64,000 nucleotides of DNA from Euglena gracilis (lineage: Eukaryota). Under the pieces are notes generated by a model. That model did no database searches and had not been told where the DNA came from. It worked only from the letters and a program-made list of their open reading frames with translations. The translations under genes and the position numbers were made by a program. Location: the NCBI GenBank assembly GCA_039621445.1, contig CP154954.1:26300954-26364953 (forward strand), read 5' to 3'. Below, piece by piece: positions 2,305 to 62,249 of the stretch; position 1 is the stretch's first letter; each line of letters opens with the position of its first letter.

Positions 2305-2392
<88 letters not shown>

Positions 2393-8300: not shown

Positions 8301-11300
8301 TTGGTGGGCCGACCAGTCAGGCTTTGGGAAACCCCCACACATAAGCGGCACCCTTAAACTACCCTCCTCCCCCCTCTATGTCCAACAACCCCCCAATGTC
8401 GAACGCCCCCCCCCCCCCGGTTGAATGACACTTTTTTCAGAGGTTTGGCCTGGCGCTGAGCGCCGGACCGAAAAATTTTGTACCCAAAATCGACCAAAAA
8501 TCGGCCAAATGCCAATTTTGGTACTTTTTTTTGAGCAAAACAATACCAAATTTCCCAAATTTTTGGCGCAAAGCACAGGGCGTAAAGAAAAGATTGACCT
8601 TATTTGGGTCCCGGGTGCCCTCCAACCTTTTTTTTTTAGACCCTTTTAGACCCCCCACATGCAACTCAACCCACGGCGTGTTTCGTTTCTTCGCTGTTTA
8701 TATTTAGTATTATATGTTATATATAGTATTATATGTTATATATATTCACACACATATTCACAGGCCGTATGTTTGGGATGTGTACTCCCTGGGGACGATT
8801 GTATAGAGCAAAATTATCAAATTGTCCAATATTTTCAGCGCAAAGCGCGGAAGGAAAATTTGACTTTGGGGGTCCTGGGTGCCCTCCAACATTTTTTTTT
8901 TTTTAGACCCCTGGTCCAACAACCGACCCCCTGGTTGGTTGTCACCCTTCTGGCCAGAACCCTATTGCAACGGGGAGTTCTGAACCCCATGGGGTCCCCT
9001 TGGTTTAATGTGGGGGTCTATTGTCTAACGTCGGCATATTTTGAGGAATTCTGTATTTTTAGGCAAAGGGTCATGGTTGTGGTTGCCTTTAAGAGCGATG
9101 TAGGTTGGGGTTCAGCCAAAGTTGGGAGGTTAGGGGGTTCTGTCGAAACTGGGCCAAAATTTGGATTTAGTTAAGCCTAATACTAGCCTACATCTGGGCC
9201 CACCTGGCCTAAATTCCAGCCCAAGCCCAGTCCAAACCCTAAACATGATCCTATCCCTCACAATTAACCAAAACCCTAAGGAGCAGGGATGCTGTATCAC
9301 ACATTTGTTTGGGGAAGTAAAAGGAAATTGAATTCGGTCCCTGTTGTGAAAAACGCCAGGTGGTCTAATCCCCCCAATCGTTCACTTACTGGAGACCCCC
9401 CCCCAAGGGCAGTAGTTTAAGGCTGCCACAAATGCAACTCAACCCACAGCGTGTTTCGCTTCTTTGCTGTTTATGCATATGTTCGCACATACACACATAC
9501 ACATACATTCACAGGCCATATGTTTGGGACGTGTATTCCTGGTGACGATTGTATCATTTCTCACCCTCCCTGGAGTTCTTTTCAAGTCACACCATCTTAA
9601 AACCTCCGAGCGCTGGGGGTGGCAGATGGCCAAAAGGACATTTGTGTAGGGACTTTGGAGAGCGGAAAATTCTGCCATTTTTTGTTGCCTTGGTACCTTG
9701 GGGTAACAGTGAGAGCTTTTTTTCACATCTGAAGCGTTTTGGACCCATTTCCAATTCAGAGCTCTGCTTCTGCCCCCACCCCAACTGGCACGCCCTCCGC
9801 CACACCGTCCGCGACGCCAACTGGCACACCCTCCGCCACGCCGTCCGGCACCCCCACCACCACCCCATCCGCCACCCCAACCACCACTCCAACCGCCACC
9901 CCTTCCGGCACGCCCACCACCACCCCATCCGCCACGCCCACCGGCACGCCTTCCGCCACACCGTCCGCCACGCCCACCGCCACCCCGTCCGCGACGCCCT
10001 CCGGCACACCAACAACGACGCCCTCGGCCACTCCGACAGGCACGCCCTCCGCGACGCCGTCTGGCACCCCCACCAGCACACCGTCGGCGACGCCCACCGG
10101 CACACCGTCCGCCACGCCGAGTGGGACCCCAACTGCCACGCCATCTGTTTCGGGCGTTGCAAACTGCCAACAGCTTTTTTTGGGTTGTGTTTGGGGCAGC
10201 AGACACAAGGCCTGGGATAGAACCGCCAGAAGAATTTTTTCCAATTCTTGCTTTCTTTCTTTTTAAATCAAAAGCTTTTGAAAATAAAAGGGACCGATCC
10301 TCCTTGAGATTGCTGGAATTATTGACTGGTTTGCGAGAGGACACAACCTGGGGGAAGCCGTCAACTTCTTGTATCATGAGCCTGGTTTTGGCACCTTGGG
10401 GTGAGGTGAAATTTCTTGGAATGAAATGCAGAAACACAGGCGGAAACTTGCGATTTGTGAAAATTTGTGAAAAGAATATAAGTAACGTGGTTTTTGGGGC
10501 AATGGGCTTTCCCTGATTTTCCCCTGCTGCAAGTGCTGGAAAAAATCTTCCCCCAGTTGCCTTTTGTGGTTTTGTTTTAGGATTCTGCCTGGTCCAACCC
10601 TCCCCTTTGATGGGTCCAGGCACTGATTTTTTTTGGGATTAGCTTAAATTGTGAGGACATCCCAAGTCTTTTTTCCTGACTTGACCCACTCCTCCCAACC
10701 CTAACCCTAGCCTGACTCTGGCGTTTTGAACCTTGGGCATTGAAGTATCCTCCGGGATGACCCCCCACGCCTATCACTCTCCCTCAAAGATTCCTGTCCA
10801 CAGTGATCGCCACCACCACAATTACCATCACGACGTCATTGTCATTTAGTACTGTGCACACAGTCTGCAGAGACGGAAGCGCAGAGGGAGATACGTCCAC
10901 CCACCTCGGAAGTGTCCAGTCCCCAGGTCGCAGGGTCAACCCCCCGCGGAGGAGTTTGCCTCCAAAACCCTTTCACAGAAAGGCGTTCGCACGTCCGTTT
11001 TTTGGCATCTGGCCCCGGGGGAGTTGACCTCCCACCGTAGGCAGGTCCCCCAGTTGTCTCCAGCGGCAGGAAACGTACGAGAGTCCAGTTTCCCGGTGAT
11101 ATTAGTTCCTCGGAGGGAAAGGCAGTGAGCTGGTACGGCAGGTAAGGTCGCTGGCGGCGGTTTGCGCCGCCCAAGTCTGCCACCCCCACCGGCACGCCGT
11201 CGGCCACGCCGTCGGCAACCCCGACCGCCACGCCCTCAGCGACGCCCTCCGGCACTCCCACCACCACTCCCTCCGCAACCCCAACAGGCACGCCCTCGGC

Positions 11301-14300
11301 CACACCGTCCGCCACGCCCACCAGCACGCCGTCGGCGACCCCAACTGCCACGCCATCCGCCACGCCATCTGCCACGCCCACGGCCACTCCTTCAGCCAGC
11401 CAGGACGGAACCCCACCCCACTATGTCACATCCCCCCACCCCCGATGTGCATTTTTTTGGATGGGGAGGGTTTGGACTGTCAAGGCAGGGACGTCGGGTT
11501 CCCAGTTTGTGTCCATGTCTCTCCTGTTAAACCTACCCCCCCTCTCTGCAGAGCAGAATGGGAATTGGCCGAACAGCCAGGGTGGGGGGGTCGACCCCCC
11601 CCGCCACCTCTTCCCGTATTTCCGGGAGCACCAATTTTTGGACCCAAAAAAATTTCCCACCGCCTTCGGCGCCAGGGGTTTTTTCACCCATTTTGGGACC
11701 CATACGGGGGGTCCCCCCCAACACCCCCTAAAACCATTTTTTCAGCCTTCCAAAATTTCAACATTTTCTCAAAATTTTGATTTTGAGAGGTTTTTGAAGA
11801 AAAAAATGCAATTGAAAATCCAAAAAGTTCCAAGAGAAAAATGTCAGTAAGATTTGACTGTGCCAAAATTCGGTCCATTTTTTTTGACCTTCGTTTTTTT
11901 TTACCCCCCTCCTAAAAGTACCAATTTTTAAACCTGAAATTTTTGAGGTTTTTTTTGTGGAAAAAATGTGGTTTTCCATAAAAAAAATAATGCATTTTGG
12001 GTTCCTTTTTTCAATTTTTTTTTAAAAAGTTTCCCCCAGCAACATCCCAAAATTGGTGAAAATGCTGTGGTGGGTGGGGGGGTCGACCCCCCCACCAGGC
12101 CTTCCCGTTCTGCCCCCCTCCCCCGGGAAACTGTCATGCCCCAGGTACTAACCAACCTGCAAGGGTAATTTTCGTTAATTTTCTCTTTCTCTTCAAATCT
12201 CCTACCCGGGAAACTTCCAGGGTTCTTGGTACTGGCCAACCTGTCATGATTGGAAGTTGTCAGGGTCTCCGGTACTGGCCAACCTGTCAGGTGACGGTTC
12301 CCCCCCGGGGGAGGGGGGTATTCTCATTTTCCAGTTAGGTTATGTTTCACTCCCCGTGGACTTCTTGTGAAGGTGGCTTTCAGGCGTTCCAAGTCAGCAA
12401 GGCACTGAGGGCGAGCCCCCCCCCCCCTTGCGATGAGGCAGCACCCTGGCCGGGCTGGGGGCTCCTTAAAGAAATCTGCATACCTTCAAAGTGCAACAAT
12501 TCTTTTTGCATTTTGACCCTCCCTTCCCCTAACCTCTCCCACCCCCACCCCCATTCCGCCCCTCAGTTGAGATTTCGTCTGACTCACCTGGGTGTCCCTT
12601 TCGCAGGGAATGCTTTGGGGGCGAAGACGGGGCTGAACGGGGCCTCATTCCAAGCTTCATGGTTGTACCGATTGCCAAGGGCAGGGGAGTTGGTCGCAGC
12701 GTCCTCAAGGTGCTTGACATTGCCAAATGTCCAGCAAGACTTTGGTGCAACTGAGAAAATTGGGTGATCAAAAGAACTCTGTCCCGCTCAGAATACTTCG
12801 CCAAACTGGGTCACCAGTTGTGCTTATTCGGGGGGTCTGTTTCTGCATCCACCCCCACTGGCACGCCGACCGTCACGCCGTCGGCAACCCCAACAGGCAC
12901 GCCCTCGGCCACACCGTCCGCCACGCCCACCAGCACGCCGTCGGCGACGCCCACCGCCACACCATCCGCCACGCCATCCGCCACGCCCACGGCCACCCCT
13001 TCAGCCACCCAGGACGGAGCCCCCCTCTTCTGGTTTCTCTTTTTTTTGCCACACTGGAGCACACACACACCCATCTCTTTAATGTTTTGCCTCTGGGGTG
13101 GGTTGGGGGCTGATGCAGACATCCCACTGAGTATCCGGGGGCAGAGCGATCAGGGAACACACAATTCTGTCAGTGCAATCCATGTGCGAAGTCTCTTGTT
13201 CGTCATCGTTTTTGTTGGGGAGTTCAAAGCTGATAGCTTTGTAATTTTCGAGTGGAAAGGAACCAAATGCTCTCTACCCAGAAGAGGACCAGGTACCCTT
13301 ATCCTGTAAAATTCCTAGAAAGAACCTGTTTTGGTATCCTGTCAAGCCAAGAGACACCTTCCCAAAGGAAAGGGTTAGAGGAGGAGAAGGAACGGAATAT
13401 TTTTTTCAGAGCCAGAAAAATAACGCATTGGACTCCTGAAGCTCTGCTTCTGACCCCACCCCCACCGGCACACCCTCTGCCACGCCCTCGGCCACTCCGA
13501 CAGCCACCCCATCTGCCACACCGTCTGGCACCCCAACCGCCACGCCTTCTGCCACCCCAACAGCCACCCCCTCCGCCACACCCTCCAGTACGCCCACTGC
13601 CACACCATCGGCCACGCCCACCGCCACGCCGTCGGCCACGCCGTCCGCCACTCCCACGGCCACCCCCTCCGCCACACCGTCCGGCACGCCGACTGTCACG
13701 CCGTCGGCAACCCCGACCGCCACGCCCTCGGCCACACCATCCGCCACGCCGACCGTCACGCCGTCGGCAACGCCCACCTCCACGCCATCCGCCACGCCAT
13801 CCGCCACGCCCACGGCCACCCCTTCAGCTGCCCAGGACAGATCCATCCTCTCCTGGTTCCTCGCAACAATGACAATCTTTTGGTAGCTTGCCTGCCCCGC
13901 CACTAATCATGCTTGAATGCCGTTAAGTACTGCTGAACATTTTTGAAACGCCGCAGAACACTCCCGAACATGAGTGCACAGGCACATAAACATACACAGT
14001 TTGGAGAGTTGTTTGTATTCTGTTGTTGATCGCTGAAAATGAGCATCTGTTTCAGTTGTGTTCAACGACTGAACGGGACAGATGTATCCAGAGACATGGC
14101 ACGAACCCAGTAACCCTATCCCTCCTACCCCCCCTACCCCCCCTTCCCCCTGCCCCTCCAAATCCCCCCCTTTCCCCCTACCCCCCCACCAGCAACCCGC
14201 TGTTTGCTGTTTCCCTCATCTCGTACTACCTTTTCCCTCTTCTTCCAGACTTGAGGACAGAAGTTTGGAAGATTTTTTTTCTATTCATTTTCTTATCAAA

Positions 14301-15672
14301 GACACTACCAAAAAATGAAATAAGAGGCAATGGGCTCCAAGTTGAACACTGTTTTTCGATCCCGAAGCTCTGCCTCTGCCCCCACCCCCACCGGCACACC
14401 CTCCACCACACCCTCGGCAACCCCGACAACCACCCCATCTGCCACACCGTCCGGCACGCCGACCATCACGCCGTCGGCAACCCCGACCGCCACGCCCTCG
14501 GCCACACCGTCCGCCACGCCGACCGTCACGCCGTCGGCGACGCCCACCTCCACGCCATCCGCCACGCCATCCGCCACCCCCACGGCCACCCCTTCAGCTG
14601 CCCAGGACGGAGCCACCCTCTCCTGGCTGCCTGGTTTCTCTTTTTTTTTGCAAAACTGGAGCACGGAAACATCTCTTTAATGTTTTCCAGACCCTTTGGG
14701 GGTGCTTCTACAGATGGCGTGGTGAATAGCTGGGGCCAGAGCGATCAGGGAACACACGATTCTGTCAGTGCGATCCATGTGTGGGATTGAGCCAGAGAAT
14801 CTCTTATTCGTCATCGTTTGTGGTGGAGTTCGATGCTGATATTTCTGTATTTCTGCAATTTTCGAGTGGAAAAGAACCACATGCTCACTACCCAGAAGAA
14901 GAGGAAGGAGCAGTCGACCAGTACCCTTATCCTGATAAATTCCCAGAAAGAACTGGTTTTGGTATCCTGTCAAATCAGGAGACAGCTTTCCAGAGGGGAG
15001 GGTTGGAGAGGGGGAAAACGAAAGGAATTTTTTTTCTACAGAACCAGAAAAGTCACAAATTGGGAACTCCCGAAGCTTTGCCTCTGCCTCCACCCCTACC
15101 GGCACACCCTCCGCCACGCCCTCGGCCACTCCGACCGCCACCCCATCTGCCACACCGTCCGGCACGCCGACCATCACGCCGTCGGCAACCCCGACCGCCA
15201 CGCCCTCGGCCACACCGTCCACCACGCCCACCAGCACGCCGTCGGCGACCCCAACTGCCACGCCATCCGCCACGCCATCTGCCACGCCCACGGCCACCCC
15301 TTCAGCTGCCCAGAACAGATCCATCCTCTCCTGGTTCCTGGCACAACGACAATCTTTCGGCAGCTGGTCGCCCCCGACACTAATCATGCTTGAATGCCGT
15401 TAAGCAATGCCGCAAATGGTCCAGGGTGTCTGTACGAGATATGCAACGCCGATTCAAAGCACAGTGGTGGGGCGAACTGAATCAACCCACCAGTGGTATT
15501 GCCTACTGTATTGGCAGTGTTCAGGAGGGCTATGTACAGAAGGGAGCGCAACGTACAGATGGGTAAACCCCATGGGCAGGTTAGCAGTGTTCAGGATGGG
15601 GAGGGTTTGGAAAATATACTGAACGTTTTTGCAACACCGCAAAACACTCCCTAATATGAGTGCACAGGCACG

Positions 15673-15761
<89 letters not shown>

Positions 15762-15806
15762 ACCCACCCACCCACCCACCCACACCCAACCACACACACA
15801 CACACA

Positions 15807-15858
<52 letters not shown>

Positions 15859-15902
15859 TGCACGCACGCACACACACACACACACACACACGTACACACG
15901 TA

Positions 15903-15950
<48 letters not shown>

Positions 15951-18900
15951 CATACACACTGTTTGTATTCTGTTGCTGATCGCTGAAAATCAACTGTGAT
16001 TTCAGCGACTGAGCAGGGCAGATGTATTGTGAGGCATGGCACGAACCCAGGACCCCCCCCTGCTCCATTCTACCTCCTACCCCCCCCTGCCCCCCTCAAA
16101 CCCCCAAATAACGGGGCAGTGCCCTTTGGGTGGGCATTGCCCAAATAACGGGGCAGGGGGCAGAGCAAAAACATAGTTCCAATAGTGGGGTACTCCCAGT
16201 TTTTTTTTTGGTCCAAGAAGTTAGTGACGGCGAAAATGTTCCACAGCACTTACCTGCCGTGAGTGTTTCGCAGTAGGCTTTGGGGGAGGGACAGAAGAGA
16301 CAGATGGTGCAAGTGGAATCAGGGATGGGTCAAAATCATGTTCAAGGTCTCGGATTTCAGGTTTGCAGCGACATCAGAGGATGTGTCACTCATCACAAAA
16401 GGTCTGTGAGGGAATACCATGATGATTGGTAGAGCCCAAATAACGGGTCGGGGGGAAGGCCAAAAATATGGTGCCAGTTACAAGGCACCTCGCCCTGTTA
16501 CTCGGGGGGTTTTACCCCCTATCCCTGCCCCCCTTGCCCCCCTTGGCCCTCCAGCCCCCCCCTGTCTTTTCCCTCTTCTTCCAACTTGAGGACAGAAGGT
16601 ATTTTATTTATTTTTATTACTTTTCTTATCAATCTCGCAACGACAAAAAATGAATTAAGAGGCAATCGGCTCCAAGTTGAACACTATTTTTCGATCCCGA
16701 AGCTCTGCTTCTGCCCCCACCCCCACCGGCACACCCTCTGCCACGCCCTCGGCCACTCCGACAGCCACCCCCTCCGCCACACCGTCTGGCACCCCAACCG
16801 CCACGCCTTCTGCCACCCCAACAGCCACCCCCTCCGCCACGCCCTCCGGCACACCCACTGCCACACCATCGGCCACGCCCACCGCCACGCCCTCGGCAAC
16901 GCCGTCCGCCACTCCCACAGCCACCCCATCTGCCACACCGTCCGGCACGCCGACCGTCACGCCGTCGGCAACCCCGACCGCCACGCCCTCGGCCACACCA
17001 TCCGCAACGCCCACCAGCACGCCGTCGGCAACGCCCACCTCCACGCCATCCGCCACGCCATCTGCCACGCCCACGGCCACCCCTTCAGCTGCCCAGGACA
17101 GAGTTTCAGCTTGAGAATTGACGATGTCTGCTTTGGTCTACTTCCCCACCCCACCTCCTGCCAGTTGATGTTAGTACAAGGTTGTTTTCGGCTCACAGTT
17201 TGCCAAGTTATTTGGCCATTAACATATATAAATGAATATGATAAATATAATATATAAATATATATATATACATATTATGTGATGTAAAATATTATATTAT
17301 GTAATAAACCCCCCCCCAAAAAATAAGACCGGGGGTCCATTTCATGGGTCGGTTGCTGGAAAGCCCGAGGGGGGGTCTTATTCATGGGGGGGGTCCATTT
17401 TATGGATTTTTGCTGGAAAAAATTTTCGACCCCCAAAATGTCCAAAAATGACCCCTCAAAATACCACTTTTCGAAAAATTTGGCGCTTTGCGCCAGACAA
17501 ATAGGGTAAAATATGCTGAATTGTGTGAAAACAGTCCCAAAATAGCAGATTTACCCCCCCCAAAAAGTCCCATTTTTCAAAATTCCGGCGCTTCGCGCCG
17601 GCAGGGGAGGTCTTATTCATGGGGGGGGTCCATTTCATGGATTTTTGCTCGGACCGGCCAGGGGGGTCTTATTTTTGGGGGGGTCCATTTTATGGGGGGG
17701 GTCTTATTTTGGGGGGGGGGTTATGATATTATGTATATATTGTATAATTGTAATATTATATTATGTTTAATATTATATTCTGTAAAATATTATATAATGT
17801 AATAATATAAATAAATAAATTGGCAGTCCACAGCTTTAAACGGTTGCAAACCAAAATACGCCCTGGCGTTGTAATTAAATTGTGCTGCAGTTTGAGTTGA
17901 GCATGAGTCCACCAATGGGGGAACAGAATTCTCTTCACAGTACGAAGCAGCAGAAGCAGCAGCAGCAGCAGCAGCAGCAGTCGCAGCAGAAAATAAAACA
18001 CAGCACCAGCAGAAGAAGACAGCCTGCATAAATGTAAACATCCACATATGCTGGGTTCAATGAAGATGAATATATGCAAACATGAGTAAGCAAAACAACC
18101 TTGGGGAAAGGTTGTTCAGCGGAGAGCTCGCCGTCTCCTGGCAAATGTCAGAGAAATCTGGTGTTTGGGGGAGCTGCCATTTTTGCGATTTTGGCACCCC
18201 CGCCTGTATTGTAAAATAAACCCGTCAACGGCATTAAATTCCACAAAATTGGTTTGTGTGAGATTTTCATCAGAGACGTAAATAGGGGAGACAGAAGGGG
18301 TCCCTTGTGTCCAGCAGCAGGCTAAGAGCAAGGTGCTTTAAGCAGTTTTGTGTGTTTTTCTCCCTTTGAAATAAGCCACATTTTGGCCTCATGTTTCTAT
18401 TTTATTTATTTGCCTGCTAATAGGAAATGTAAATTTATGGGAATTTAAATTCCTATTTATTTATTACCATTTAATTTATGGGAAACGGAAGTTATGGGAA
18501 TTATAAATTCCTATTAATTAAAAATTTGTTCACTTATTGAACGCAAATCAGCCCCCCCCCCCCCACTGCTCCAACATTGTTATGATCAGTTTATCCATCG
18601 CCGACTCTGCTTCTGCCCCCACCCCAACCCCGACGCCGTCCGCCACACCGTCCGCCACGCCCACGGCCACCCCCTCGGCAACACCCACCGCCACACCCTC
18701 AGCTACGCCGTCCGCCACCCCCACCGCCACGCCCTCGGCCACACCGTCCGCCACGCCCACCGCTACACCGTCCGCCACCCCCACGGCCACACCTTCGGCC
18801 ACGCCGTCCGCCACGCCCAGCGCCACGCCGTCCGCGACGCCCAGTCCCACCCCGACCGCCACTCCCTCCGCGACCCCCACGGCCACGCCGTCCGCCACGC

Positions 18901-21900
18901 CTTCCGCCACGCCCTCGGCCACGCCATCCGCCACCCCAACCCCCACGCCCACCGCCACGCCCTCCTCCACCCCCACCGCAACCCCATCAGCAACGCCGTC
19001 TGCCACTCCCTCTGCCACGCCTTCAGCCACGCCAACGGTCACTCCCTCCGCCGCGCAGGGGTGGCTTGTTCTTTTGAAGCGCGAAGTGCTGGCTTGTGGT
19101 TGCTCACCGACCACCCCCAAATGAAAGCCGCAGCAGGCATTATTCTTCAGACCTGGTTTTTGGTCAGGTCTGGTTTTTGTTGTTTTTTTTTGGACCGACC
19201 TCACCCCCCTCCTCCAAGAGACACTGTGGTGTTGGCAAATAACAGCAGTTTTATGCAGTTTCGGTGCTATTTGGACAAGATTTTTTGTCGAATTGTTCAC
19301 TTTGAGAAATGGCATTTTGTTGTGGATTTGATGAACAGAATCAGATCCTGCCCCAAAGCAATTTCAAACGTTTTGGAAGAGCTTTTCTGGGGAAAAAGAC
19401 AATGTTTCCAAAAATGTGGCGTTGGGTGCGTTGGGTGTAGGTTTAGGGCATTTCTTCAGCCAGACCCACAAACCTACCCCTGGGCGGGAGTCCAGACAGC
19501 CGGCACGTTTCCCATCCTGCAGCCCGGCTGGGCTGTGGACCCCCCTGGAGGGGGGTCGAGTGGGAGAAAAGTTATTGCAGCCCGGCAAAGCTGGACGTCA
19601 AATATGGCCAGAACGGCCATTTCTGAGCATTTTTGAGGTTTTTTTGGGGGGGGTTTCACCCCCAAATTTTGGCTGAAAAATTCAACCCAACTGGATTTGG
19701 GCCTTTTGTTTTTGGGTGCGTGCCGGGTCCAGCCTGGGGACCCCCCCCCCAGACCCCTCCCACGTCCTGGGGGTGGATCCAGCCAGCACCTTTTTTCTCT
19801 ACGCACACCTTTTTCCAGCCAGCCGGTTGATCCCCCTTTGGGGGTCCTTTTGAAATTCCCTGGTTCGGAACTGTTTTGTTGACACACCGTGTTGTCAACA
19901 CCCCCATGCCACGTCCCATTCAGGAACGTTGGGCGGGTGAGTTACCAAGGTTTGTATTTTGTTTTACTCTTCTACAATTTTGTTCTCCCATTCTGTTGGC
20001 CCCAAACAATAATTCTCTGCCCCTTCAGAACCCACATTATCTTATGCTCATATTTGGCAAAAAAGCATCAAGACCTAGCGAAAAAATGTCATTGTGGTAT
20101 CTAACATAGCCCCTTGGCAAGTTTACAGCTTTCAGTGATGAGGGGAGTATTTCGAAGATGCACCTGTTTTGCCTCAAATCATATTTTGAGGACACCTTAT
20201 GCATATAAAGGAGGAATAAAAACACTAAAAGGGAAACTGTGCAAACACACCATAACAAACCGTCGGGTGTTTCAATTCATACTGCCACTCGGTCATAGGG
20301 TTAATGGAAGAGCAGCACTTTCCCCCATTCAAGTTCCTCATGTGGCATTCAAGATTTTTCACCTCTGTCTCCACCCCATCCGCCACACCCTCAGCTACCC
20401 CGTCTGCCACCCCCACCGCCACGCCCTCGGCCACACCGTCCGCCACGCCCACCGCCACCCCATCCGCCACCCCCACGGCCACACCTTCGGCCACGCCGTC
20501 CGCCACGCCCAGCGCCACGCCGTCCGCGACGCCCAGTCCCACCCCGACCGCCACTCCCTCCGCGACCCCCACGGCCACGCCGTCCGCCACACCTTCCGCC
20601 ACGCCCTCGGCCACGCCATCCGCCACCCCAAAAAGGTACCTATTAATAAAAGCAAATCACCATTGCGCTATCAGATTCAGAATGCATGGATACATATGGT
20701 TTTTGTTTGTGTCCCCCTTTTCCCTGGTGGCAAGCTTCGCTCTTACCCATAAAGGGATAAGAGCTCAGCGACCCCTCCACACCCTCCCATATTATGCCCA
20801 GGGCAGAACGGGAATCGGCCGAACAGCCAGGGTGGTGGGTGGGGTGGGGGGTCGACCACCCTCCCACCCCTGCATGGTGGGTGGGGTGTCGACCCACCCC
20901 CCACCTCTTCCCAAAAGAATGCACCCGGTGCCTTCGGTGCCGGGTGCATTTTGGACCCATTTTGGGACCCATGTGGGTGGTCCTCCCAAAACCCCCAAAC
21001 CCCCATTTTTTCACACCTTCCAAAATTTCACATTTTCTCGAAAGTTTGGTTTTTGAAGCAAGAAATGCTGTTGAAAGTCCAAAAAGTTCCAAGAGAAAAA
21101 CGTCAGTAAAATTTGACTGTGCCAAAATTGGGTCCAATTTTTTTGGCGTTTGTTTTTTTCACCCCCTCCTAAAAAGGACCAATTTTTAAACCTGAATTTT
21201 TTTTGATTCTTTGCGAAAAAAACGTGGTTTTCATCAAAAAATCATGTAATTTGGGTTCATTTTTTCAGGAAAAAAATTCAAAAAATTTCCCCGACCAAAA
21301 TCCCCGTTTTCCTAAAAATGGTGAAAATGCCGTGGTGGGTTGGGGGGTCGACCTACCCCAGGTGAAGGGGGTGGACGGGTGCGAACCACAGCCCCCCCCC
21401 CCCCGCTGGGTCTTAAAAAAACCGCCGTTGTGATAAATCTGCCCAAACAATTCTAAAAGGCATAACCCCTCCTGTCTTATGTCTTTTGTCATGCCAAAAT
21501 AAAATTTAGGATGTTACCGAGGATGTTTATTCTTGGAGATTTCTGCACGCTTTTTTTGAGTGTACAAATTGTGTTCAAAACCATTTAGCCCTAAACTGAG
21601 GCCGTGTAAATTGCCCCAACAATGGTGAATGTTTAAGCGGAAAAGGAAGCGGAAACAAAAAATTTTAGACAGCGATGACACGTTTCCTGCTTCATTTATT
21701 CAAATTTTTGTGGTTTTCTTTGCTAATTTCGACTTTTGGTCAAAGTATTGGGGCCCCTTTTTGCTCACCTTGGCGTCTGAAAGAAGTCAGTCACTCTAAG
21801 CCAGTCCTCCGACAGAAACAGTCCAAAAACGCTCCCAGTTCTGCTTCATTTCGAGGCGTCTGGAGGGCCTTGAGACCTTAAAAGAAGGGGAAGCGGATAT

Positions 21901-24900
21901 CTTCAAAATTGCTTCTTTTTTGGGACGCCGACGAGTGGATAGGAGGGATCGGCGGAGGTAAGGAGAGCACGCACAGCCACCCCCCCCCCGAATTTTCCAA
22001 ATAGCCACGAGGAAGCGGAAATTCGCTTCCTCGTGACCATTCCAATTTAATAGTTGTTCCGTGTGAGGGCAGGAAACACCTCATACCGTTGCATATGCCC
22101 ACTTGAAAACCTGGGCTGTGCAAAATGGACGCTCACTGGCGGTGGGGATGCCAACAAGCGGTGCCGGCACCGCTGGGGCACCGCTTGGCACCGCTGGGGC
22201 ACCGCTGGGGCACCGCTGGGGCACCGCTTGACACTGCTGGCACCGCTTGACACCGCTGGGGCACCGCTTGGCACCACTGGGACAGGAACCCATGGAATAA
22301 TACTGAGGGAAAAAAAAACGGGGATATCCCATAAGAAAGCATGAAAGCATCTCGTTGTGACATAAACATTTGTGGCCATCAAAAAAACCTGTATAAAACA
22401 AAAGGCACATGGAAAAATTTTTGCAAGGGTTCCCCCTAAAAAAAGAAAGCCTTCTGTCCCAGCGGTGTCAAGCGGTGCCAGCGGTGTCGGCACCGCTTTT
22501 TAGGCATCCCCGGTGAGAGGTCACCCGCTGTGTTTGTGCTGTGACGGAAGCAAAGAATTGCTGCCCCCCCCAAAGATAAAGAGAGAGCGGAAGCTGAAGC
22601 CAAAACTGAGGAAGAAAGGCACTGGAGTCTAATTGAGGGAGGACCAGTCACACTTCGACTCATGGCTCAAAGTGGGACCCCAATCATTTCAGACTCTGCC
22701 ATCGATTTCTTGACCAAAAATCTCACCCGGAGAAATGGTGGAGTCGGAATTGGGGGGGGGTTAATCCGGCCCAGTTTGGACCCTTCACGGATGAGTAAAC
22801 CCCACCCCCACTTAAAACTCCCTACTTATACCCCCCTCGGGCCGACCAACCAAACCGGATCCTATAAACCCCGGGGGGTTTATAAGTAGGGGGGGTTTAA
22901 CTCGGGCCTGTGGGCAGTTGGGGGTTAACCAGAGGTGATTCGGAAAATATAAATCCAGTCGCTCGCAACTGCAAAAGAAATTCTTGGAACGGGCTCATGG
23001 TGATAGTCCGCTGGTTCCCCTACCTACCCGGCGGGGGGAGGGCGGGGGGGTTCAACCCCCCTTTTCCCCAGTGGCCCAAAGTGACCCAAAATGCATGGGT
23101 TTCGAGCCAAAAACTGGGGGGGGGGGGGCGAAAAACGCTCATACTCGGCTCAAAAACAGTTTTTATGGATCTACGAGGCTCAAAAAAGATGGCATTTGGG
23201 ATTTTTTTTGACTTCTTTGACCTAATTCAGCGGGGAGTTACACAGAAAACAAAATGTGGTTAGGTTGGGCTTTTAAAAGGCTTTAATTTAGGACTTTTCC
23301 TTTGATTTTGCTTCATTTTCGAGATATCTGGAAAAAAAACTGATTTTTTTTGTCCCGAAAACGGCTAAGTTTGAAACAAGCCGAAACTGTGCAAAATGGC
23401 CAAATTTGGTCCAAAAAAATGGCCATAACTCGGGCTACACGAAGAGTTGGGGATAAAGTACACCATTTTTGGATAGGGTATTCCAAGGGCTTCATTTTTG
23501 CTCTGCGGACATTTTCTTTTATTTTGCTTCATTTTCGAGTTATTTTGAGAATATTGTCCCCCCCCAAACATCCCGAAATGGCCGTTTTGGACCACAAAAG
23601 CGTGCCAGAACACAGGCCAGGCGTGTTGGTAACAAAAATGACGTTTGGGGGGTGATGGAGGACCTTCATTTGGTCTGACAGACACTTCCGGAATAATGTT
23701 CGTTTTCTCAAGATTTTGTAAAAATCGATTATTTTTTTAATACCAAAAATCTCACCCCGGAGAGATATTTCAGAGTCTGAACTGGGGGGGGGGGGGTGGC
23801 TAATCCTGACCAGTTTGGACCCTTCGCGAGTGAGTAACTTGGGCCTGGCGGGCAGTTGGGGGTTAACCAGAGGTGGGTTGGAAACTCGGGATCTAGTTAC
23901 TCGCGACTGCAAAAAAAAATAACTCCGTGAACGGGGCCAGGGTCATGGTGATAGTCCGCTGGTTCCCCTACCTACCCAGCAGGGGGAGGGCGGGCTCCAA
24001 CTCCCGGGTGGGGGGGGTTCAACCCCCCCCACCAGGCCTTCCCGTTCTGCCCTGCCCATACCCCATCCCCCCCATACCCCCGTACCCTGCCCCATGCGGC
24101 TGCACATCCGCGTGGCAGTTGATGTTTTTTCTGATGCATCATTTCCTGGGCAAATCACACGACATATTGAACTGTCGGAGTGCTCGGGGGGGGGGGGGCA
24201 AGAAGAATAAACCTCAACTGTGTACCGACTTATTGTGTGGGCAGATCGCGCGATTTATGAAACCGTTCCCCAAATGAGCCCCAGAGTATTGCAACACATA
24301 TCCAAATAACACGTCAGTGTTCACTGCCGTTGTGGGATAACTGCAAGGAGCCATTGGAAAGTGCATCACGGATCCCCCCTTTTTCAGCCAACCTCATCAA
24401 CAACATCCCCATACCCTTCCCCCCACCCAAACCCCCACACACCTTCCATACCCGAGGTATGAAGGCCCCACTTTATGTGATATGTGCAAAACTCAGTTGG
24501 GCAATTTAACAGCAAATCTAAAATCAAAGTGGGCCAACTTGCCCAACATGGCCCAACATGGTGGCCCATCGCGATTGGGTACCTGGCCCCAACAGCCACC
24601 CCCTCCGCCACACCCTCCGGCACGCCAACCGCTACACCATCGGCCACGCCCACCGCCACGCCGTCGGCCACGCCGTCCGCCACTCCGACAGCCACCCCTT
24701 CCGCCACACCGTCCAGCACACCCTCCGCCACGCCGTCGGCAACCCCGACCGCCACGCCCTCGGCCACACCGTCCGCCACGCCCACCAGCACGCCGTCGGC
24801 GACGCCCACCGCCACGCCATCCGCCACGCCATCCGCCACGCCCACGGCCACTCCTTCAGCTGCCCAGGACAGAGCCCCCCCCTCCTGGTTCCTGGCACAA

Positions 24901-27900
24901 GGGCAGCTTTTGGTACCTGGCCTCCCCGACCAGCAATCATGCTTGAGCACCATTAAACACCACTGAATATTTCCCAACTCAAATGCGCAGGCACCCACAC
25001 ACACACAACCAGTGGAAATTTGTTCGTTTTCAGTTGTTGATTGTCGCTGAAAATGAACACCGATTTCATTTTCAGTTGTGTTCAATGATTAAACACAACA
25101 GATCTATTGTCGTCAGTTTCTTTTTCCGTTTTTTCGGAGCGTCGCCCACCTCAAACCATGCCAGACGGGGCTTTTTCATTTCATCTGCCTGTCATCTGTC
25201 GTCATTCTTTCTGGCTTTCCTGCTTTTAGCAAGCAATCCTGGAATTCCAAATTGATGACTCACTTTTTTTTGCCCCGTCTCACTGTTGCCCCAGTGAAGT
25301 TGCCCCAGAGTCTGGTGAGGCATTTTGAACCTTTGCTTCAGCATGTCAGACTGCGGTGCTCAATTTCATTTTTTTTTGATCCGCACTGCCCCAGGTTTGG
25401 TGAAATTGGGCCCGTGGTTTTGGTGGTCAAGCACAGGGTTGTAAAGAAGGGGAATCAAATCTTGTGAGAAATGGTGCCATCTTTTACCTCTCCTTCCAGA
25501 AGTTTAGTGCAGAAGGGATTATTTTCCTCAAAATCTCCACATCAAAAAGTGAATTAAGAGATGATTGGCTCAGAGCTCAACACTACTCTCAACGCTTTTT
25601 TCTCAGTATGCTCTTCTCATTTAGATTATGTTCAACGCTACTTTTCGATCCCAAAGCTCTGCTTCTGACCCCACCCCCACCGGCACACCCTCTGCCACGC
25701 CCTCGGCAACCCCGACAGGCACCCCATCCGCCACACCATCTGGCACCCCAACCGCCACGCCTTCCGCCACCCCAACAGCCACTCCCTCCGCCACACCCTC
25801 CGGCACGCCAACCGCCACACCTTCGGCCACGCCCTCGGCCACGCCATCGGCCACGCCGTCCGCCACCCCCACAGCCACCCCATCTGCCACACCGTCCAGC
25901 ACACCCTCCGCCACGCCGTCGGCAACCCCGACCGCCACGCCCTCGGCCACACCGTCCGCCACGCCCACCAGCACGCCGTCGGCGACGCCCACCGCCACAC
26001 CATCCGCCACGCCATCCGCCACGCCCACGGCCACCCCTTCAGCCAGCCAGGTTGAAAGCCATCAATGTCATTTTTCTGCTTTTGCAAATATTTTGAAGAA
26101 TTTGTTCACATTTAAGTCACAGTCATAAGTTTCGTTTTCTGCAGCATAAACTTCATCTGGAAAGATGTGCTGGTTGTTGTTGTGCAGAACTTTGTACGAA
26201 AATTTCAGGTTGATCCCCTGTCTATGACAGAGCCCACCCATCTCCGATGCAAACGATTCTGCCTCTAGATCCCCATTTCTTGTGGCCTCTTCTTCACTGA
26301 CCACCCCATTCCTGCCGATCACCCCCGTTTTGTATGAACATATGAATCTGCTGGTTGGTATGAATTGACTAGGAGACCAGTTTCTGATGATAAGAGGCAA
26401 TTGTCGGTAAATAGAGGCAAAGTTTTTATGGAATGAAAAATATGACTGCCAACAGGGGCAGAGCGAGGTTGTTTGCAATTGGTTTATCCCGTCCACACTT
26501 CTGCTTAAGGGTTCGCATTCCCCAGGGGCTATTGCAGCCGTCCAAATTGGCAAGTGGAAATCACCTAGTGGACCTCCTGGGTGGTGATCTGCTAGCATGC
26601 TAGCAGGGCTAGCTGGTGGAAATTTTTCCCAGTGGCCTGTGCAAAGCTTTTTGGACCCCCAACACCCCAAAAAAATGTGTTTTGGCGGTTTGGTGAAACA
26701 GCAAAACAACAAACATTTTGGTGGAACAAAATCAGCCCAAAAGCATTAAAAACCTCATTTTCACCTCGGTGCACAGCACCAGATGAAAAAAGTTTTTCCT
26801 GTTGAGGACTCCCAGACCCCCCCCCCCTGGGGTCCCCCCCCCTGGGGTCTAGCCAGTGGCTTCTTCTAGTTGCTGTTAAAGTGGCCAAGTAGTGGACCCC
26901 TCCCCTGGATCCTAAAACAAAAGCCTGCTCCCATCTATTTACTTCAAAGGTATGCCAGTTGTAACGTGTCTGATGCAAAATGCGTAAAATTATATCAGCA
27001 AGAATATTTATAAGTATATTTTGTTGATATATGCAGTTGCATTTCATCCCCTCCCCAAAGCTGGTTTAAACTGACTGGGCTGGGAAATAAGCGTGGAGAC
27101 ATTGCAAAGGCAAGCCAACGAAAGGGAGCAAAAGGGAGAAACCCAGAATCTATCCTGCATTTGGCAAATGGCATTTAGCCAGTGGTTGGCACATATGTCT
27201 GTTGTTGGTTCTGCCCCGGGACTTTCGCTGCTGGTTTTCAGGGTCAAGGGACATTTTGGTATGCCACCGTTGCTTGTGTCTGGAGCTTCTCTCCTGCAAC
27301 CACCCCCACCACCACTCCCTCGGCAACCCCCTCCAGCACGCCGACGGCCACCCCGTCAGCAACGCCCTCCCCGACGCCCACCAGCACGCCGTCGGCAACG
27401 CCCACGACCACACCGTCCGCCACGCCCTCTGGAACGCCCACGGCAACCCCTTCAGCCACCCAGGGCAGAGCCAGTCTGCCTGTCCCTCTTTCATATTCTG
27501 TGTGGCATCCATCGCGCCCAGGCTTCTTTTTAAGTCAGAAGACCCCCCCGGGGGTGGGTGGGTGGGTCCGGGCCGGACCCCCATGGGGGGGGGGGTCCCA
27601 CGCAGGAGGCGCCAGGTATACCTTTTCGGCGCGAAGTGCGAAAATTTTTGAAAATTGCCTTTAACGGGCCCGATTTTGGGGTCCCCCCCCCCGGGTCCCG
27701 CGCCACCCTGGGTGGGTGGGGGGGACCCCCCTCCGGGGGTCTTAAAAAGAAGCCTGATCGCGCCTGCCTCAAGATTCGTCTTTTTGGCAAGGTCGATGAG
27801 CAAGGTAATGCAAGAGAAATGAAGTTTTGTAAAAAAAAGCAACTTTGAAAGTGTGTGGGCAAGTGATAGGCTGCTGCAGGTAAGGTTGTGTAAAAACCGC

Positions 27901-30900
27901 AAAAAGACCCTGAACTTTTGAGAAAGCAATTTTTTGTCCCCAATCAAGGTGATAACACCAAGCGTTGAAGTGGGATAAAAGCCATGTTTTCAGAAAGAAA
28001 ACCCAGACCAATGGAAGAATTTCGTATTAATATGTTTGTTTTAGTTAGTTTGGTGGCCCTCTGGGCTTTGCTGGTTTTAATGTGACTTTTTGCCATCATT
28101 GCATACATACATCTCTTTAAGGACCCCCGGGGGGGGGGTTGCTGGGCTAGGGCTAGAATATTGGGTTGCTAGAAACCTGGCATAGCTGCCCCCCCTTTCT
28201 TCCCGCGGGGGGGGGGGGGGTGGACCCCCCCCAAGGACCCGAAACTCCATGGACTGGAAATCGGAAAAATGCCCAAAAAATACCTGCAAGACACAGTTTG
28301 AATATAATGACGCTGAAACCCCCCAAAAAGGCCCCAAACGCCCCCCCAAACCACTGCATGCTGTATATGGCTTCCACAATGCTGCATGTGCCACATTAGA
28401 TACCTCGTGCTGTGCATTGGGTTTGTGCTAACTTAACAAGATTTAAACAAGCCCTCTTGTGCATACATTTTTAAATGTATTTTTCAATTTTTATCACTGG
28501 AACATGCATTCAGCTTACCTCTAACGTGCATGGCTAGCAGGGCTAGCAGCACCCCCCCCGGGGGGGGGGTGCTGCTGCGGCTGGGCTGGGCCCAAATCGG
28601 GGCTGGCTGCAGCCGCCCCCCCCGGGGGGGGGGGGTTCGCAAAACCTTAGAGAGATGTATGATTGCATAGTGTGCATTTGCAACTTCACATATGTGTGTG
28701 CAAACATGTTCGGGTCCATGTCCATCTCTTTTTTCCAACAGTATTGGCAGCCTCATACTGCTGGGACCCCCAAGGACCAACTCCCAATGTTATGGGGGTT
28801 AATAGTATGAAGCTGCCACAATGCTACATGTGCACACATTAGATACCTCGTTGCTGCATTGGGTTTGTGCTAATGAAGATTTAACAAAGCCCTCTTGTGC
28901 ACCCATTTTTATGTATTTTCAAATTCTTATCACTGGAACAGGCATTCAGTTCCTCTAACGTGCATTATTGAATTTTACAATCTGGAGGGTGGCTCCACCC
29001 CCCCCCCCCCCCCCGCCTGTACTGAGTGGTACCCCCCCCAGAGGGGTTCCTCTATTTATGGCACAATGCATGGAAAAAAATTTTTGACCCAGATCGAACC
29101 CTGGGGGAGCTTCAAAAATAAAATACTCCCCTTCTGATGCAGTCATTGTGCATTGGTGTCCGTCAGGGAGTGGCGGGGACACATTCTGCGTAAGGATGAC
29201 TCCAGGGAGGCGAAAGGTCCCCTGCAGGGCACTTTTGAAGCCAGGCACGCTGACTGTTCTCCCGGCGGCCAAACCTTTGTTCAAGCTTCTGCCTGTCTGT
29301 TGGGTCCAGCAGAACATTTCGAGAGTATTTCCTCGGGATGCTCTCCCATGCCCCCACCCCAACCCTGACGCCGTCCACCACACCGTCCACCACGCCCACG
29401 GCCACCCCCTCGGCAACACCCACCGCCACACCCTCAGCGACGCCGTCCGCCACCCCCACCGCCACGCCCTCGGCCACACCGTCCGCCACGCCTACCGCCA
29501 CCCCGTCCGCCACCCCCACGGCCACACCCTCAGCCACGCCGTCCGCCACGCCCAGCGCCACGCCGTCTGCGACGCCCAGTCCCACCCCGACCGCCACGCC
29601 CTCCGCGACTCCTACGGCCACGCCGTCCACTTTTCAGGGCCCCAACCTCCCCCGGGTGCCATTCTCGTTGTCAGATCTCTCCCTTTCACAAAGCTTCAGT
29701 CACTCTGCATTTTGTCCGTCCTTCCCTGCTAACCTCCAGTTGAAGCATAGTATTGTTTCTTCGGAGGTCGGTGCTCTGCCCCCACCCCAACCAACACGCC
29801 CTCTGCAACCCCATCCAGTACCCCTACAAGCACCCCGTCCGCCACCCCAACCGCTACCCCAACCGCCAGTCCCTCCGCCACACCCACAGACACGCCGACC
29901 AGCACCCCATCGGGCACCCCAACCACCACCCCAACCGCCACCCCAACCCTGACACCAACGGCCACCCCGTCCGCCACCCCAACAAGTACCCCGTCCGCGA
30001 CCCCCTCCGGCACGCCAACTGCCACGCCGTCCGCCACACCGTCCGGAACCCTGTCGGCCACCCCATCCGCCACGCCCACCGTCACCCCCTCGACCACCCC
30101 CTCCGGCACCCCCACCACCACTCTGTCGGCCACTCCCACTGGCACGCCGTCTGCCACACTGTCCAGTACTCTATCCGCCACCCCAACGGCCACCCTGACT
30201 GACACCCCCTCCGCCACCCCACACAGGGGGCCGCCGCCAGCACGGTAGCCTCCGGCTCCCGTTCATAGTGTACAGCAGTCTGTAGCCGACAAAGCGCGGG
30301 GGATAAGGAAGTACCTCCCCCCTTTTCCAACAACCGGCCTTCTCCAACGACCCCCCCGGTCAATAGCGGTCTTTTTCCAGGTGATCTTTTTTTCACCGGT
30401 TGTTTTCTTTTTTCTTTTTTTCCACCACATTTTGTTTCGACCTCGGTCTTGTCTAACGACCACCCCCCGGTCAGTAGCGATATTTAGTGGTCGTTGGACA
30501 ACCACCAATAGCGTTTTTTTTTTGGCCAGCGAGAAGTTACCTCTCGACCCATGAACCCCCAAACTGACCAAATATAAGTAAGCAAGTAAGTAAGTAAGTA
30601 AATAAGTAAGTAAATAAGTAAGTAAGTAAATAAATAAATAACACCCTCAAATATAACCCCCCACCAAATGTGAAAAACCCCCTTGTCACGTTGGAAATTT
30701 ATCATCTACACACCAATGATCTTGTGACTGGAGTCTGATGGCAACACAAACAAGGGGGGTTATATTGTAAAGGGCATTGCATTTGCCCTGACACAAGAAC
30801 AGGGACTAAAAAAGAAATATGTGTACACCATTCGGCCCCCTCATGTTGCCATTTCAGTCAATTTCAGCCTGGTACAAAAAAAGCACCCAAAATGGCAGTT

Positions 30901-32224
30901 CGAAGACGGCCATGTCACTGCTGAAAATGAAATCTCCTGTGCTTTTTTGCCTTGATGCAAAAGATTGGACCAAAACAAATTTTTTTGCTCATTCAACCTT
31001 GGGACCAATCATCTTCAATACCCAGTCCATTGTTTGTGTGGGCGAAGTTGGTGGGGGAATTCTTGGGGAAAAAAAACCCTTTTCTTCACAAAATTTGCTG
31101 GTTCTCAAATGTCTGGCAAAAGGCAGCGTCTTTTTGTTTGTTTTCCTGGTCGACCAAAAATTGTGAACCATTTTTTTGCCTGAAATCCGACACCCAAAAG
31201 GGTCGTCCTATCCCACCCCTCCCCTTCCTTCTTGTAAGGTGTCACCTGGTTTCTGGTAGCGGATCTCTAATTACTTTTATGGGCAGATGTAAGACCCCAT
31301 CGTGGCCGCTGCAACGACCTTCGCAATCTTTTTTTTATAACCTCCCCACCCACATCGCTGCCATGTCGGTCCCCCCATTTTGAGAGAGGCTCCATTGGTT
31401 GGTTGGTTGGTCAACCAAACGGACAGGCCGCTTTCCCCTGCCTCCGACCTCCACATCGACCGTTTCCCCGACCCCCACCGACACGGCATCCACCACCGAC
31501 ACCGCCACCCCAACCTCGACCCCGACCCCCAGCGCTTCTGCCACCGCAACGCCCACCTCCACCCCCTCCGAGACGGACACCGCCACTCCAACCGCCACCG
31601 AGTCCCCCACCCCCACTCCAAGGGGCGCGGCGCTTGGGACAGGAGTCCCCCCAGCAAGCACCTTTCTGGGTGGTGGGCGGGGGGGCATTGCGTGGCGTGG
31701 CGCTCCCGCTGACTCGCACCACCACATTGACCGCAACACCGTCGGCCACCGGCACCCCTACGCCCACTGCCACTCCCACCGAGACACTGACACCCACCGG
31801 CACCGACACGCAGACGCCGACTGACACCTCGAGCCGGACCGGCACCGGCACCCGAACCCGCACCATCACTTCCACGCCGACCCCCACCGGCACACCAACT
31901 GCCACCCAAACCCCAACAGTGACCCCGAGCCGTAGCAAGACCATCTCGGGCACCCCGACGCCCACCACCAGCGCCACCCCGACCAAGACCCGCACGCGGA
32001 GCCAGACCCCCACCATCACCGTGACCCGGTCCCGGACCATGTCCCCCACCCCGTCCTACACCGTCACCAGCACGCCGACGGCGACGCCCACCAGGACCAG
32101 CACCATCACCCCGACCTCGACCACGACGAGTACTGCAACAACGACGCGGTCTTCGACAGCCACTCGCACCAGAACTTGGACAAGTGTGTGTGTAAGTGTG
32201 GTTGGGTGGGTGGGTTGGTTTGTC

Positions 32225-60929: not shown

Positions 60930-61830
60930 CAGGACATTCTCCAAAGAACCTTGGGCACCAAGTCTTTGATAATGGGCTGTAAAAGCCTCCACCCCCTTCC
61001 ATTGACCAATTTCACAAACTTCTTGGGCAGAAAGGCCCAATTTTTTTAGCAAACCAACCCCTGCCCCTCTGGTGGAGTGGGGTCCCCAAACCTGGGGGGG
61101 TACCCCCTGCTTGGTCAAAAAGTCTTTGGTGATAGAAGCAATGGTATCTGCCTTAATGGCTTTGTAGGGGGGTTTTAACGTAATTAAAAGGGGGCCCCCC
61201 GGTTTCATAAAGAAACGTGTTGCTGCCACATAAGACAACATTAAATGAAAGGGGCTGATTTGGGGGCACTGGGGAATGGAGACAACTCTCTCCCACTTGT
61301 GGAGTTTTTGACCTTTACGTTTAATTTTGATGTAGGGTGCCCCCCCCCCAACACACTGGTGGTTCTTTGGACCTGTGCCAAATCTGAACTTCTGTATAAA
61401 CAGAGGATTCGTGAACAGAAAATGAGTTGTGTACGCAATGTACATATATCAGAGGGCAGGGGGGACTGTGGCAGCCCCAGGAGGATTGGGAGGGGATCCC
61501 AGAATGCACCATATTTCTCCAGATTTTGGTTCCAAGGCCTTTTATAAGGTGCCAACATGGCATGGAACCTCAGGCCCCCAAAGCCAGGGATCAATAGCAT
61601 AGCACTGTATGCATTGCGTGCTTGGGCCTTTGAAAATTGGAACAGTTGAATTAAAGCGTCAACCACTTGGTCAGTGGTGGCTTCAGGGGGGGTAGCCCCA
61701 TTTTTTCCAGAATCACCCATAAAAGCGTAAAGGCACTTTGGTACCTTTTCAAACTGGGGTTTCTTCCCAGGAAATCGTTAATGGTTGAATTTTGTATTTG
61801 TTTCCCCTCCAAAATTTGCCTGGCCACCTG
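60930..61830 (-). CDS. Tyrosine recombinase (phage-integrase family), split by homopolymer frameshifts
   Basis: LYRSSDL (R), KRKG (K), HSTR (HxxR), GQW, AHY (catalytic Y). Confidence 0.85.
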
Positions 61831-61859
61831 GGGGGTGGCATTTTTTCCCCCCTGCAATT

Positions 61860-62200: not shown

Positions 62201-62249
62201 CATTGAAAAAGTTGGGGGACCAGGGAATAATCCCCCCTGTCCATTTCCC

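Follow-up and report, generated by a model that had tools for sequence, protein, structure and literature searches.

Does a transposon resident in the genome of Euglena gracilis have the form of a nonconventional (NC) intron, and may the spacing typical of NC introns be read as the mark left by the insertion of such elements? [quoted passage not shown] The element starts with CAG and ends with CTG, and is flanked by a perfect 8-bp target site duplication (TSD). NC introns of euglenids, the origin and removal of which have been a standing question since the 1990s, feature 3 nt, CAG...CTG, and 5 nt. The explanation favored here is made of three parts: MITE1 is a genuine transposon, MITE1 plus one TSD copy has the form of an NC intron, and the 3-nt and 5-nt spacers of NC introns together correspond to one 8-bp TSD. 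Taken as a whole, it is assigned a probability of about 0.6, and represents a partly supported, testable refinement of the known MITE-origin hypothesis.

The hypothesis was proposed by Milanowski et al. in 2013/14, when no transposable elements were known in euglenids (PMC3935182), and recurs in passages of PMC6221363, PMC12501133 and PMC12621601. The transposon origin had been described, in a sequence-only reading of the window which this analysis followed up, as proposed in general terms. The printed record is more specific, as a section of a 2024 review (PMC11282704) labels the CAG/CTG ends as terminal inverted repeats (TIRs), and the repeats found at intron junctions as TSD-like. In the literature searched, no statement that 3 + 5 nt equal an 8-bp TSD was found, no euglenid element with CAG/CTG ends and no source element of NC introns is named, and no paper combined the term 'nonconventional intron' with '8-bp'. 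Repeat families are not analyzed in the main text of PMC12501133. Suggestions of a MITE origin go back to 2013, and a resident element matching both the splicing code and the TSD makes the idea sharply and cheaply testable. If true, the refinement would explain why the spacers measure 3 and 5 nt, and why one consensus is found at both junctions.

MITE1 and its 8-bp target site duplication

MITE1 (27519-27756; non-coding, with no strand assigned) is delimited by TIRs matching at 16/16 positions, CAGGCTTCTTTTTAAG at the left end (27519-27534, + strand) and its reverse complement at the right end (27741-27756, - strand). In the window the exact 16-mer is found in these two arms only. Past base 16 the arms diverge by an indel into palindromes made of C-runs and G-runs. 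The octanucleotide ATCGCGCC flanks the element at both sides (27511-27518 and 27757-27764, 8/8 identity, no strand assigned), and was also recovered as direct-repeat family D4 (100%). The length of the flanking repeat was measured by comparing the k nt at the left with the k nt at the right of the element, for k = 4-12. All positions match at k = 8, at most 3 at any other value up to 11, and 7/12 at k = 12. The element had been delimited correctly in the sequence-only reading, since coordinates, CAG/CTG ends and TSD all hold.

Candidate pairs of termini were collected from the window in two ways. CAG...CTG pairs located 40-4000 nt apart, with an inverted-repeat identity of at least 11/14, are 193, and 8/8 flanks are seen in MITE1 alone, the runners-up being eight pairs at 5/8. 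Inverted-repeat pairs with any termini, perfect in the outer 8 nt and matching at 13/16 or more positions overall, are 424. Flanks are identical (8/8) in MITE1 and in a second element, MITE2, only, and match at 7/8 positions in two more pairs, a third element (MITE3) and a G-run artefact. In 60 simulated Markov-1 windows, inverted-repeat pairs with flanks matching at 7/8 or more positions average 0.13, with a maximum of 2. Compared to shifted registers, the excess of such pairs in the window is small (4 vs 2.15 expected). As the control hits are low-complexity loci, the case rests on the individual elements and not on their count. It is very unlikely, to the point of not being credible, that TSD and TIRs of MITE1 are joined by chance. 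MITE1 is a genuine non-autonomous TIR DNA transposon, the insertion of which duplicated exactly 8 bp.

The MITE1 family is clearly repeated in the genome, and includes deletion variants. Logan contigs of the DNA runs X1 and X8 were placed on the interval 11001-31000 of the window. In this interval single-copy contigs have word depths of ~44-66 (X1) and ~10-35 (X8). At the center of MITE1 (27638) the summed contig depth is 5558 and 629, respectively, that is 25-100 times the single-copy contigs, a summed depth not being equal to a copy number. The contig joints 27537>27658 and 27547>27736, present in both runs, indicate that internally deleted copies of MITE1 reside elsewhere in the genome; elements carrying the second joint would measure ~50 bp. 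The shorter side of MITE1 joints is 19-21 letters long, which fits matches ending at the ends of the TIRs. In other contigs position 20775 is joined straight to 27519, another repeat thus adjoining the first base of MITE1. The flanks of MITE1 have no paralog in the window which could represent the empty site, and no empty-site joint was found among the 15 of 640 joints listed, none of which has a TIR/TSD structure.

MITE1 might in principle not be mobile at all, and result from a palindrome and a direct repeat which arose by chance, or from an error of assembly. Only one full-length copy is present in the 64-kb window, and exact MITE1 patterns gave 0 matches in JGI metagenome contigs, as would be expected in this case. 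Such an explanation is nevertheless highly improbable, as the combination of a 16/16 TIR and an 8/8 TSD is unique among the 193 and the 424 candidate pairs and absent from the simulations, as many MITE1-matching contigs and the deletion variants occur in two independent DNA runs, and as the architecture of MITE2 is related to that of MITE1.

MITE1 is not alone, and the window holds at least three TIR elements with 8-bp flanking repeats. MITE2 (28106-28661, 556 bp; 28098-28669 with TSDs; no strand assigned) has the TIR CATACATCTCT(T/C)TAAG, which matches at 15/16 positions, and a perfect 8-bp TSD, ATTGCATA. A joint internal to the element (28158>28637) is present in both X1 and X8. MITE1 and MITE2 are identical at 9/10 positions over the last 10 TIR bases, and have in common the layout, a TIR followed by a C/G palindrome. 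MITE3 (45611-45958, 348 bp; 45603-45966 with flanks; no strand assigned) has the TIR CATACCATTGCTT (14/16), and its flanks, GTCAGCCC and GTCCGCCC, match at 7/8 positions. A 2638-bp element (2507-5144) features a perfect 25-bp TIR, GACTTAGGCGGCGCGAATTGCCCAA, and flanking 8-mers matching at 6/8 positions. In MITE1, MITE2, MITE3, and the latter element, the flanking repeat appears at k = 8 only, and 8 bp is a recurrent TSD length among the TIR elements of the window. A larger element of 3256 bp (20799-24054; no strand assigned), ending with the 16/16 TIR CAGGGCAGAACGGGAA, is nested in a putative intron described below. Contigs and reads from other copies of this element end at 20797 and 24054, and joints tie its ends to repeats located at 11758-12080, which suggests that shorter derivatives exist.

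Two other sequences resemble parts of these elements. Positions 265-426 of MITE2 (28370-28531) and the segment 28812-28965, just downstream of the element, share 85% identity. A 261-bp unit at 44183-44443 is bounded by the TIR CAGG(G/C)TTGTATGGGAA, matching at 13/14 first positions, and has C-rich flanks which match at 5/8 positions; the first 7 nt of one arm, CAGGCTT, are those of MITE1.

The MITE1 unit and the nonconventional splicing code

The geometry of NC introns, 3 nt + CAG...CTG + 5 nt, has been experimentally established by knock-in (PMC12501133). In the experiments described in sections of this paper, splicing is lost when CAG or CTG is altered by single changes, the length of the donor spacer can be neither increased nor reduced by 1 nt, the acceptor spacer prefers 5 nt, and a purine is required at the start of the acceptor exon. 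Synthetic 50-bp introns made of CAG/CTG, 3- and 5-nt spacers, the acceptor purine and 12 bp of complementarity were spliced (PMC12501133). The consensus in E. gracilis is CCAGG at +3 to +7, and CCTG at -9 to -6 (PMC11170887). According to passages on junction rules, a pyrimidine is the last base of both the upstream exon and the intron, a purine the first base of the intron as well as of the downstream exon (PMC3935182, PMC4770533), and a C is found at the third base of the downstream exon and, in E. gracilis, at intron position +3 (PMC11170887, PMC3935182, PMC4770533).

MITE1 matches this code once joined to one TSD copy. The predicted NC-type excision unit (27516-27761, + strand, 246 nt) is made of GCC, CAG...CTG, and ATCGC. 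All the elements of the code are present in the sequence starting at 27515, C/GCC CAGG...CCTG ATCGC/GCC, in which slashes denote the junctions: the 3-nt donor spacer (GCC), the 5-nt acceptor spacer (ATCGC), the acceptor purine (G, first base after the unit), and C at +3 as well as three bases past the unit's end. The CAG/CTG termini continue into a 13-bp complementary extension, and the TSD reads ATCGC/GCC. By eye the reverse strand also fits the code (GGCGC/GAT CAG...). The 16-nt ends of MITE1 are paired in the computed RNA fold (-154.2 kcal/mol, z -3.76), and 0/200 shuffles are as stable. It is a sound prediction that MITE1 plus one TSD copy would work as a ready-made NC intron. As the published code is fully matched, the scarless removal of the unit from an exon can reasonably be predicted. 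At its present site MITE1 is an ordinary nested insertion, and its splicing is predicted only.

In the mechanism proposed, the unit 27516-27761 would carry all the features which proved sufficient for NC splicing in the knock-ins, and its excision would leave a single copy of the TSD, and with it the sequence as it was before insertion. Because excision would restore the target, MITE1-like elements landing in an exon are predicted to be harmless, and to be future NC introns. The 3-nt and 5-nt spacers of NC introns would correspond to one 8-bp TSD, and the mirrored junction rules (pyrimidine/purine twice, third-base C twice) to two copies of one target site. The rules of the two junctions do duplicate each other in the TSD register, a symmetry which could equally reflect needs of the cutting machinery.

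Repeats at NC junctions have been reported by others. A newly gained gapC intron, found in one E. agilis strain, is associated with eight-nucleotide direct repeats, as stated in part of PMC4770533, and 84.4% of E. agilis introns have short junction repeats, according to a passage of PMC12501133. [quoted passage not shown] This number fits an 8-bp TSD, because an 8-nt repeat gives nine positions.

The mechanism can be extended, more tentatively, to NC introns as a class, which might all consist of CAG/CTG TIR transposons plus one 8-bp TSD copy. Were this the case, cuts would be placed 3 nt ahead of the terminal stem and 5 nt behind it, since no sum other than 8 gives the target back, the junction rules in print would describe two copies of the preferred target site of the transposon, and MITE1-like families would still be producing new introns, in either orientation.

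Putative introns and flank identity

MITE1 is located in a repetitive gene. Over its first 32 kb the window consists of C-rich exon-like units arrayed in tandem (+ strand), which encode Thr/Pro/Ser/Ala repeats. Eleven units end with CTTCAGCY, three nt, and CAGGACRGAGCC, and the next units begin after AGCTCTGCTT CTG CCCCC/ACC. The 11 spacers thus delimited (674-6741, 7114-9777, 11398-12850, 13007-13457, 13830-14383, 14600-15091, 15308-16718, 17091-18620, 24862-25672, 26045-27301, and 27458-29355, all + strand) appear to be copies of one euglenid-type NC intron. The term intron is used for them solely on account of their paralogy and of the fit to the published model of euglenid NC junctions. 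CAG is found at +4 to +6 in 11/11 paralogs, CTG at -8 to -6 in 10/11. All 11 have pyrimidine/purine at the 5' junction and end with a pyrimidine, and are followed by A..C in the acceptor exon. The eleventh paralog (27458-29355, 1898 nt), starting with ACC CAG GGCAGAGC, is the putative host intron of MITE1. Its paralogy ends 15-16 nt inside, and nothing else in the window matches the interior. As the junction features of the introns are kept and the interiors cannot be aligned, ends look constrained while interiors turn over. MITE1 probably lies, therefore, in a non-coding spacer between two exon-like units of the repeat gene. Its location inside an intron, as given in the sequence-only reading, is likewise a putative one, backed by paralogy.

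Very high-copy repeats fill the spacers between exon-like units, and many of them are built on C-run/G-run palindromes. In the interval 11001-31000 the summed depth of DNA contigs is 10^4-10^5 in intron-like bins, vs ~50 in exon-like bins. No Rfam family was found at gathering score. The array also includes a segmental duplication (5-2315 / 6436-8745; ~2.3 kb, 95% identity), which spans an exon-like unit and the start of its intron.

An additional putative intron, called B, is found at 20630-24590 (+ strand), and hosts the 3256-bp element mentioned above. It reads AAA + AAGGTACC...GGTACCTG + GCCCC, with AAG in place of the expected CAG, and is flanked by ACCCCAAA and GCCCCAAC, bracketed in the context ...GCC[ACCCCAAA]AAGGTACC...GGTACCTG[GCCCCAAC]AGCC... 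Three intron-less paralogs (near 13552, 16813, and 25767) carry GCCACCCCAACAGCC uninterrupted, and ACCCCAAC once. When intron B is spliced in silico by the NC geometry, one ungapped block is obtained across the junction (155/179, 155/180, and 156/180). The alternative GT...AG reading (20630-20637, 24583-24595) is one base off the NC reading and adds one base, and the NC reading alone restores the paralog sequence. The comparison supports the view that intron B either was inserted or has been precisely lost in the paralogs, and that its removal would be scarless. The repeat in register measures 6 bp if all bases are to match, or 8 bp if two mismatches at the ends are allowed. Along with the published observations given above, this comparison speaks for the 8-bp reading. 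Intron B is similar to the introns termed 'intermediate' in published work.

Several results weigh against the explanation favored here, and the first set concerns flank identity. The 8 nt preceding CAG had been said, in the sequence-only reading, to often resemble the 8 nt following CTG. The six pairs of 8-mers quoted were all read correctly, but no excess over chance can be shown in the window. The introns starting at 11398 and 26045 are both among the 11 paralogs, and therefore count as one event. In this family flanks match at 4/8 positions in six members, 3/8 in one, 5/8 in one, and 6/8 in three, and the majority flanks, CAGCTGCC and CCCCCACC, match at 4/8 positions in a very C-rich context. 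At 44136 the inverted repeat of the chosen 3' CTG is 7/14, and 28/74 alternative CTGs are equally good; it looks as though the flank had guided the choice of this 3' end. Of 61, 63, and 92 alternatives at 20630, 53571, and 40100, the CTG chosen is in each case the single one with the best inverted repeat, and flanks matching as well as those observed (6, 5, and 5 positions) or better were found in 2/61, 5/63, and 4/92 alternatives, respectively. The three matches are suggestive, the cases having been selected by the reader who proposed them. The open reading frames (ORFs) flanking 40100, 44136, and 53571 are short, and unconvincing as coding context. In an unbiased test, 151 non-low-complexity CAG...CTG pairs (inverted-repeat identity at least 11/14) were compared with 20 shifted registers per pair. 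Flanks match in register at 5/8 or more positions in 9/151 pairs, vs 6.7 expected; the figures are 3 vs 1.6 in pairs with inverted-repeat identity of at least 12, and 2 vs 0.9 at 13 or more.

A second set concerns the elements themselves and their hosts. MITE2 and MITE3, two of the three elements with 8-bp TSDs, have CAT/ATG and not CAG/CTG termini. A clean 8-bp TSD was sought and not found at the ends of the 3256-bp element (20799-24054), which does start with CAG. In intron B an 8-bp repeat requires two substitutions, a 6-bp repeat none. The putative host intron of MITE1 has ATG at 29348-29350, where 10 paralogs carry CTG; in the light of the published mutagenesis, this copy of the host gene may be defective, and may not splice. 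No splice joint was found in the raw RNA run X21 over 11001-31000 (196 reads, 187 of which partial). The contig run X15, marked 'RNA?', covers putative intron pieces of the same interval as well, and hence behaves like DNA. A BLAST search of the 64-kb window detected no second full copy of MITE1, the best partial match being 63 nt at 76% identity, and no intron consisting of the MITE1 family was seen in the window, where the full copy is one only. A hAT transposase, to be looked for according to the sequence-only reading, was not found in the window either: no transposase or hAT domain was found in a Pfam scan of 150/194 ORFs of at least 120 aa, the longest after a low-complexity filter, nor a transposase in a separate scan of 10 long ORFs.

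All this bears on the possibility that MITE1 is an ordinary insertion in non-coding DNA, and that 8 equals 3 + 5 without causal meaning. Junction repeats would then result from double-strand-break repair, from microhomology, or from a machinery needing the same pyrimidine/purine context at both sides, and MITE1 would be one more transposon in a repeat-rich genome. The flank data and the CAT/ATG ends of two elements out of three speak for such a coincidence, as do some published statements. Double-strand-break repair is the origin attributed to the eight-nucleotide gapC repeats by the authors describing them (a passage of PMC4770533), and in sections of PMC12501133 NC motifs are called 'relatively weakly conserved', and the acceptor purine is reported to be functionally required. 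The symmetry of the junctions can therefore be a product of selection and not of descent. A mere coincidence is considered unlikely, all the same. MITE1 fits the NC code at every element tested, and independent published details, namely the gapC repeats, the nine tubB positions and the mirrored junction rules, converge on 8 in the expected register. TSDs of DNA transposons measure ~2 to 11 bp, hence the chance that a TSD length of 8 matches 3 + 5 is ~1 in 6.

Superfamily of MITE1 and comparison with known systems

Elements which start with CAG and have an 8-bp TSD are typical of the hAT superfamily, the terminal motif of which is YARNG, and the target consensus nTnnnnAn. The start of MITE1, CAGGC, fits the terminal motif at 4/5 positions and misses the fifth. 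The start of MITE2 and MITE3, CATAC, does not fit. Position 2 of the TSD is T in each of the three elements, and position 7 is A in none of them. The assignment of MITE1 to hAT is thus not secured. Merlin elements with 8-bp TSDs have been documented in E. gracilis, and Merlin is characterized by TSDs of 8-9 bp, and near-perfect TIRs with a conserved terminal 5'-GG (PMC8101967). MITE1, MITE2, and MITE3 share the 8-bp TSD with Merlin, and start with CAGG or CATAC, not with GG. It is possible, if rather doubtful, that the MITE1 family belongs to Merlin, or to another superfamily with 8-bp TSDs, through which the link to NC introns would run. The mismatch at the fifth terminal base of MITE1, the CATAC starts, and the lack of hAT domains in the 150 ORFs scanned argue for a family other than hAT. 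The CAG start combined with an 8-bp TSD and the T at TSD position 2 argue for hAT, and the missing 5'-GG speaks against Merlin.

Among the 150 ORFs, Pfam matches were obtained for RVT_1 (1 ORF), Yae1_N (4), Zip (1), and DUF7130 (1), and RVT_1 is the only one pertaining to mobile elements. Ten ORFs of the 3256-bp element yielded neither a transposase nor any Pfam match. The RVT_1 match (E 2.3e-21) is in a long ORF of a retrotransposon remnant which occupies 60450-63999 on the - strand. A tyrosine-recombinase-like HSTRG...Y stretch, noticed by eye in the ORF 60453-61448, suggests a DIRS-like element; the 782-aa ORF at 61654-63999 has no Pfam match of its own.

If MITE1 is placed among known systems, its nearest counterparts as a transposon are the hAT-superfamily MITEs and the Merlin elements. 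Like hAT MITEs it has an 8-bp TSD, short TIRs starting with CAG, and no coding capacity, and differs from them in the fifth terminal base and in TSD position 7. Like the Merlin elements of E. gracilis (PMC8101967) it is a euglenid DNA transposon with an 8-bp TSD and near-perfect TIRs. Merlin TIRs start with GG, while those of MITE1, MITE2, and MITE3 start with CAG or CAT.

As a removable unit, 27516-27761 is comparable to the euglenid NC introns described by Milanowski et al. (2014, 2016) and in sections of the 2025 PNAS paper PMC12501133. Common traits are CAG at +4 to +6, CTG at -8 to -6, a terminal stem, spacers of 3 and 5 nt, pyrimidine/purine junctions, and a C found at +3 as well as at the exon's third base. 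The unit differs from NC introns described so far in being predicted only, in lying within a putative intron, and in being a recognizable multi-copy repeat with a perfect TSD.

Two systems outside euglenids, both as reported in part of PMC11282704, have some of these traits. In the introners of Micromonas and Aureococcus a TIR element plus part of the TSD makes up the removable unit, as proposed for MITE1. Introners have spliceosomal GY-AG sites and 3-nt TSDs, whereas MITE1 has CAG/CTG stems and an 8-bp TSD which would be split 3 + 5. The MITE-derived introns of Fritillaria borealis are, as in the euglenid case, non-GT-AG introns with TIRs and TSDs, located at species-specific positions. Their removal is ascribed to an adapted U2 spliceosome, while euglenid NC introns leave as circles.

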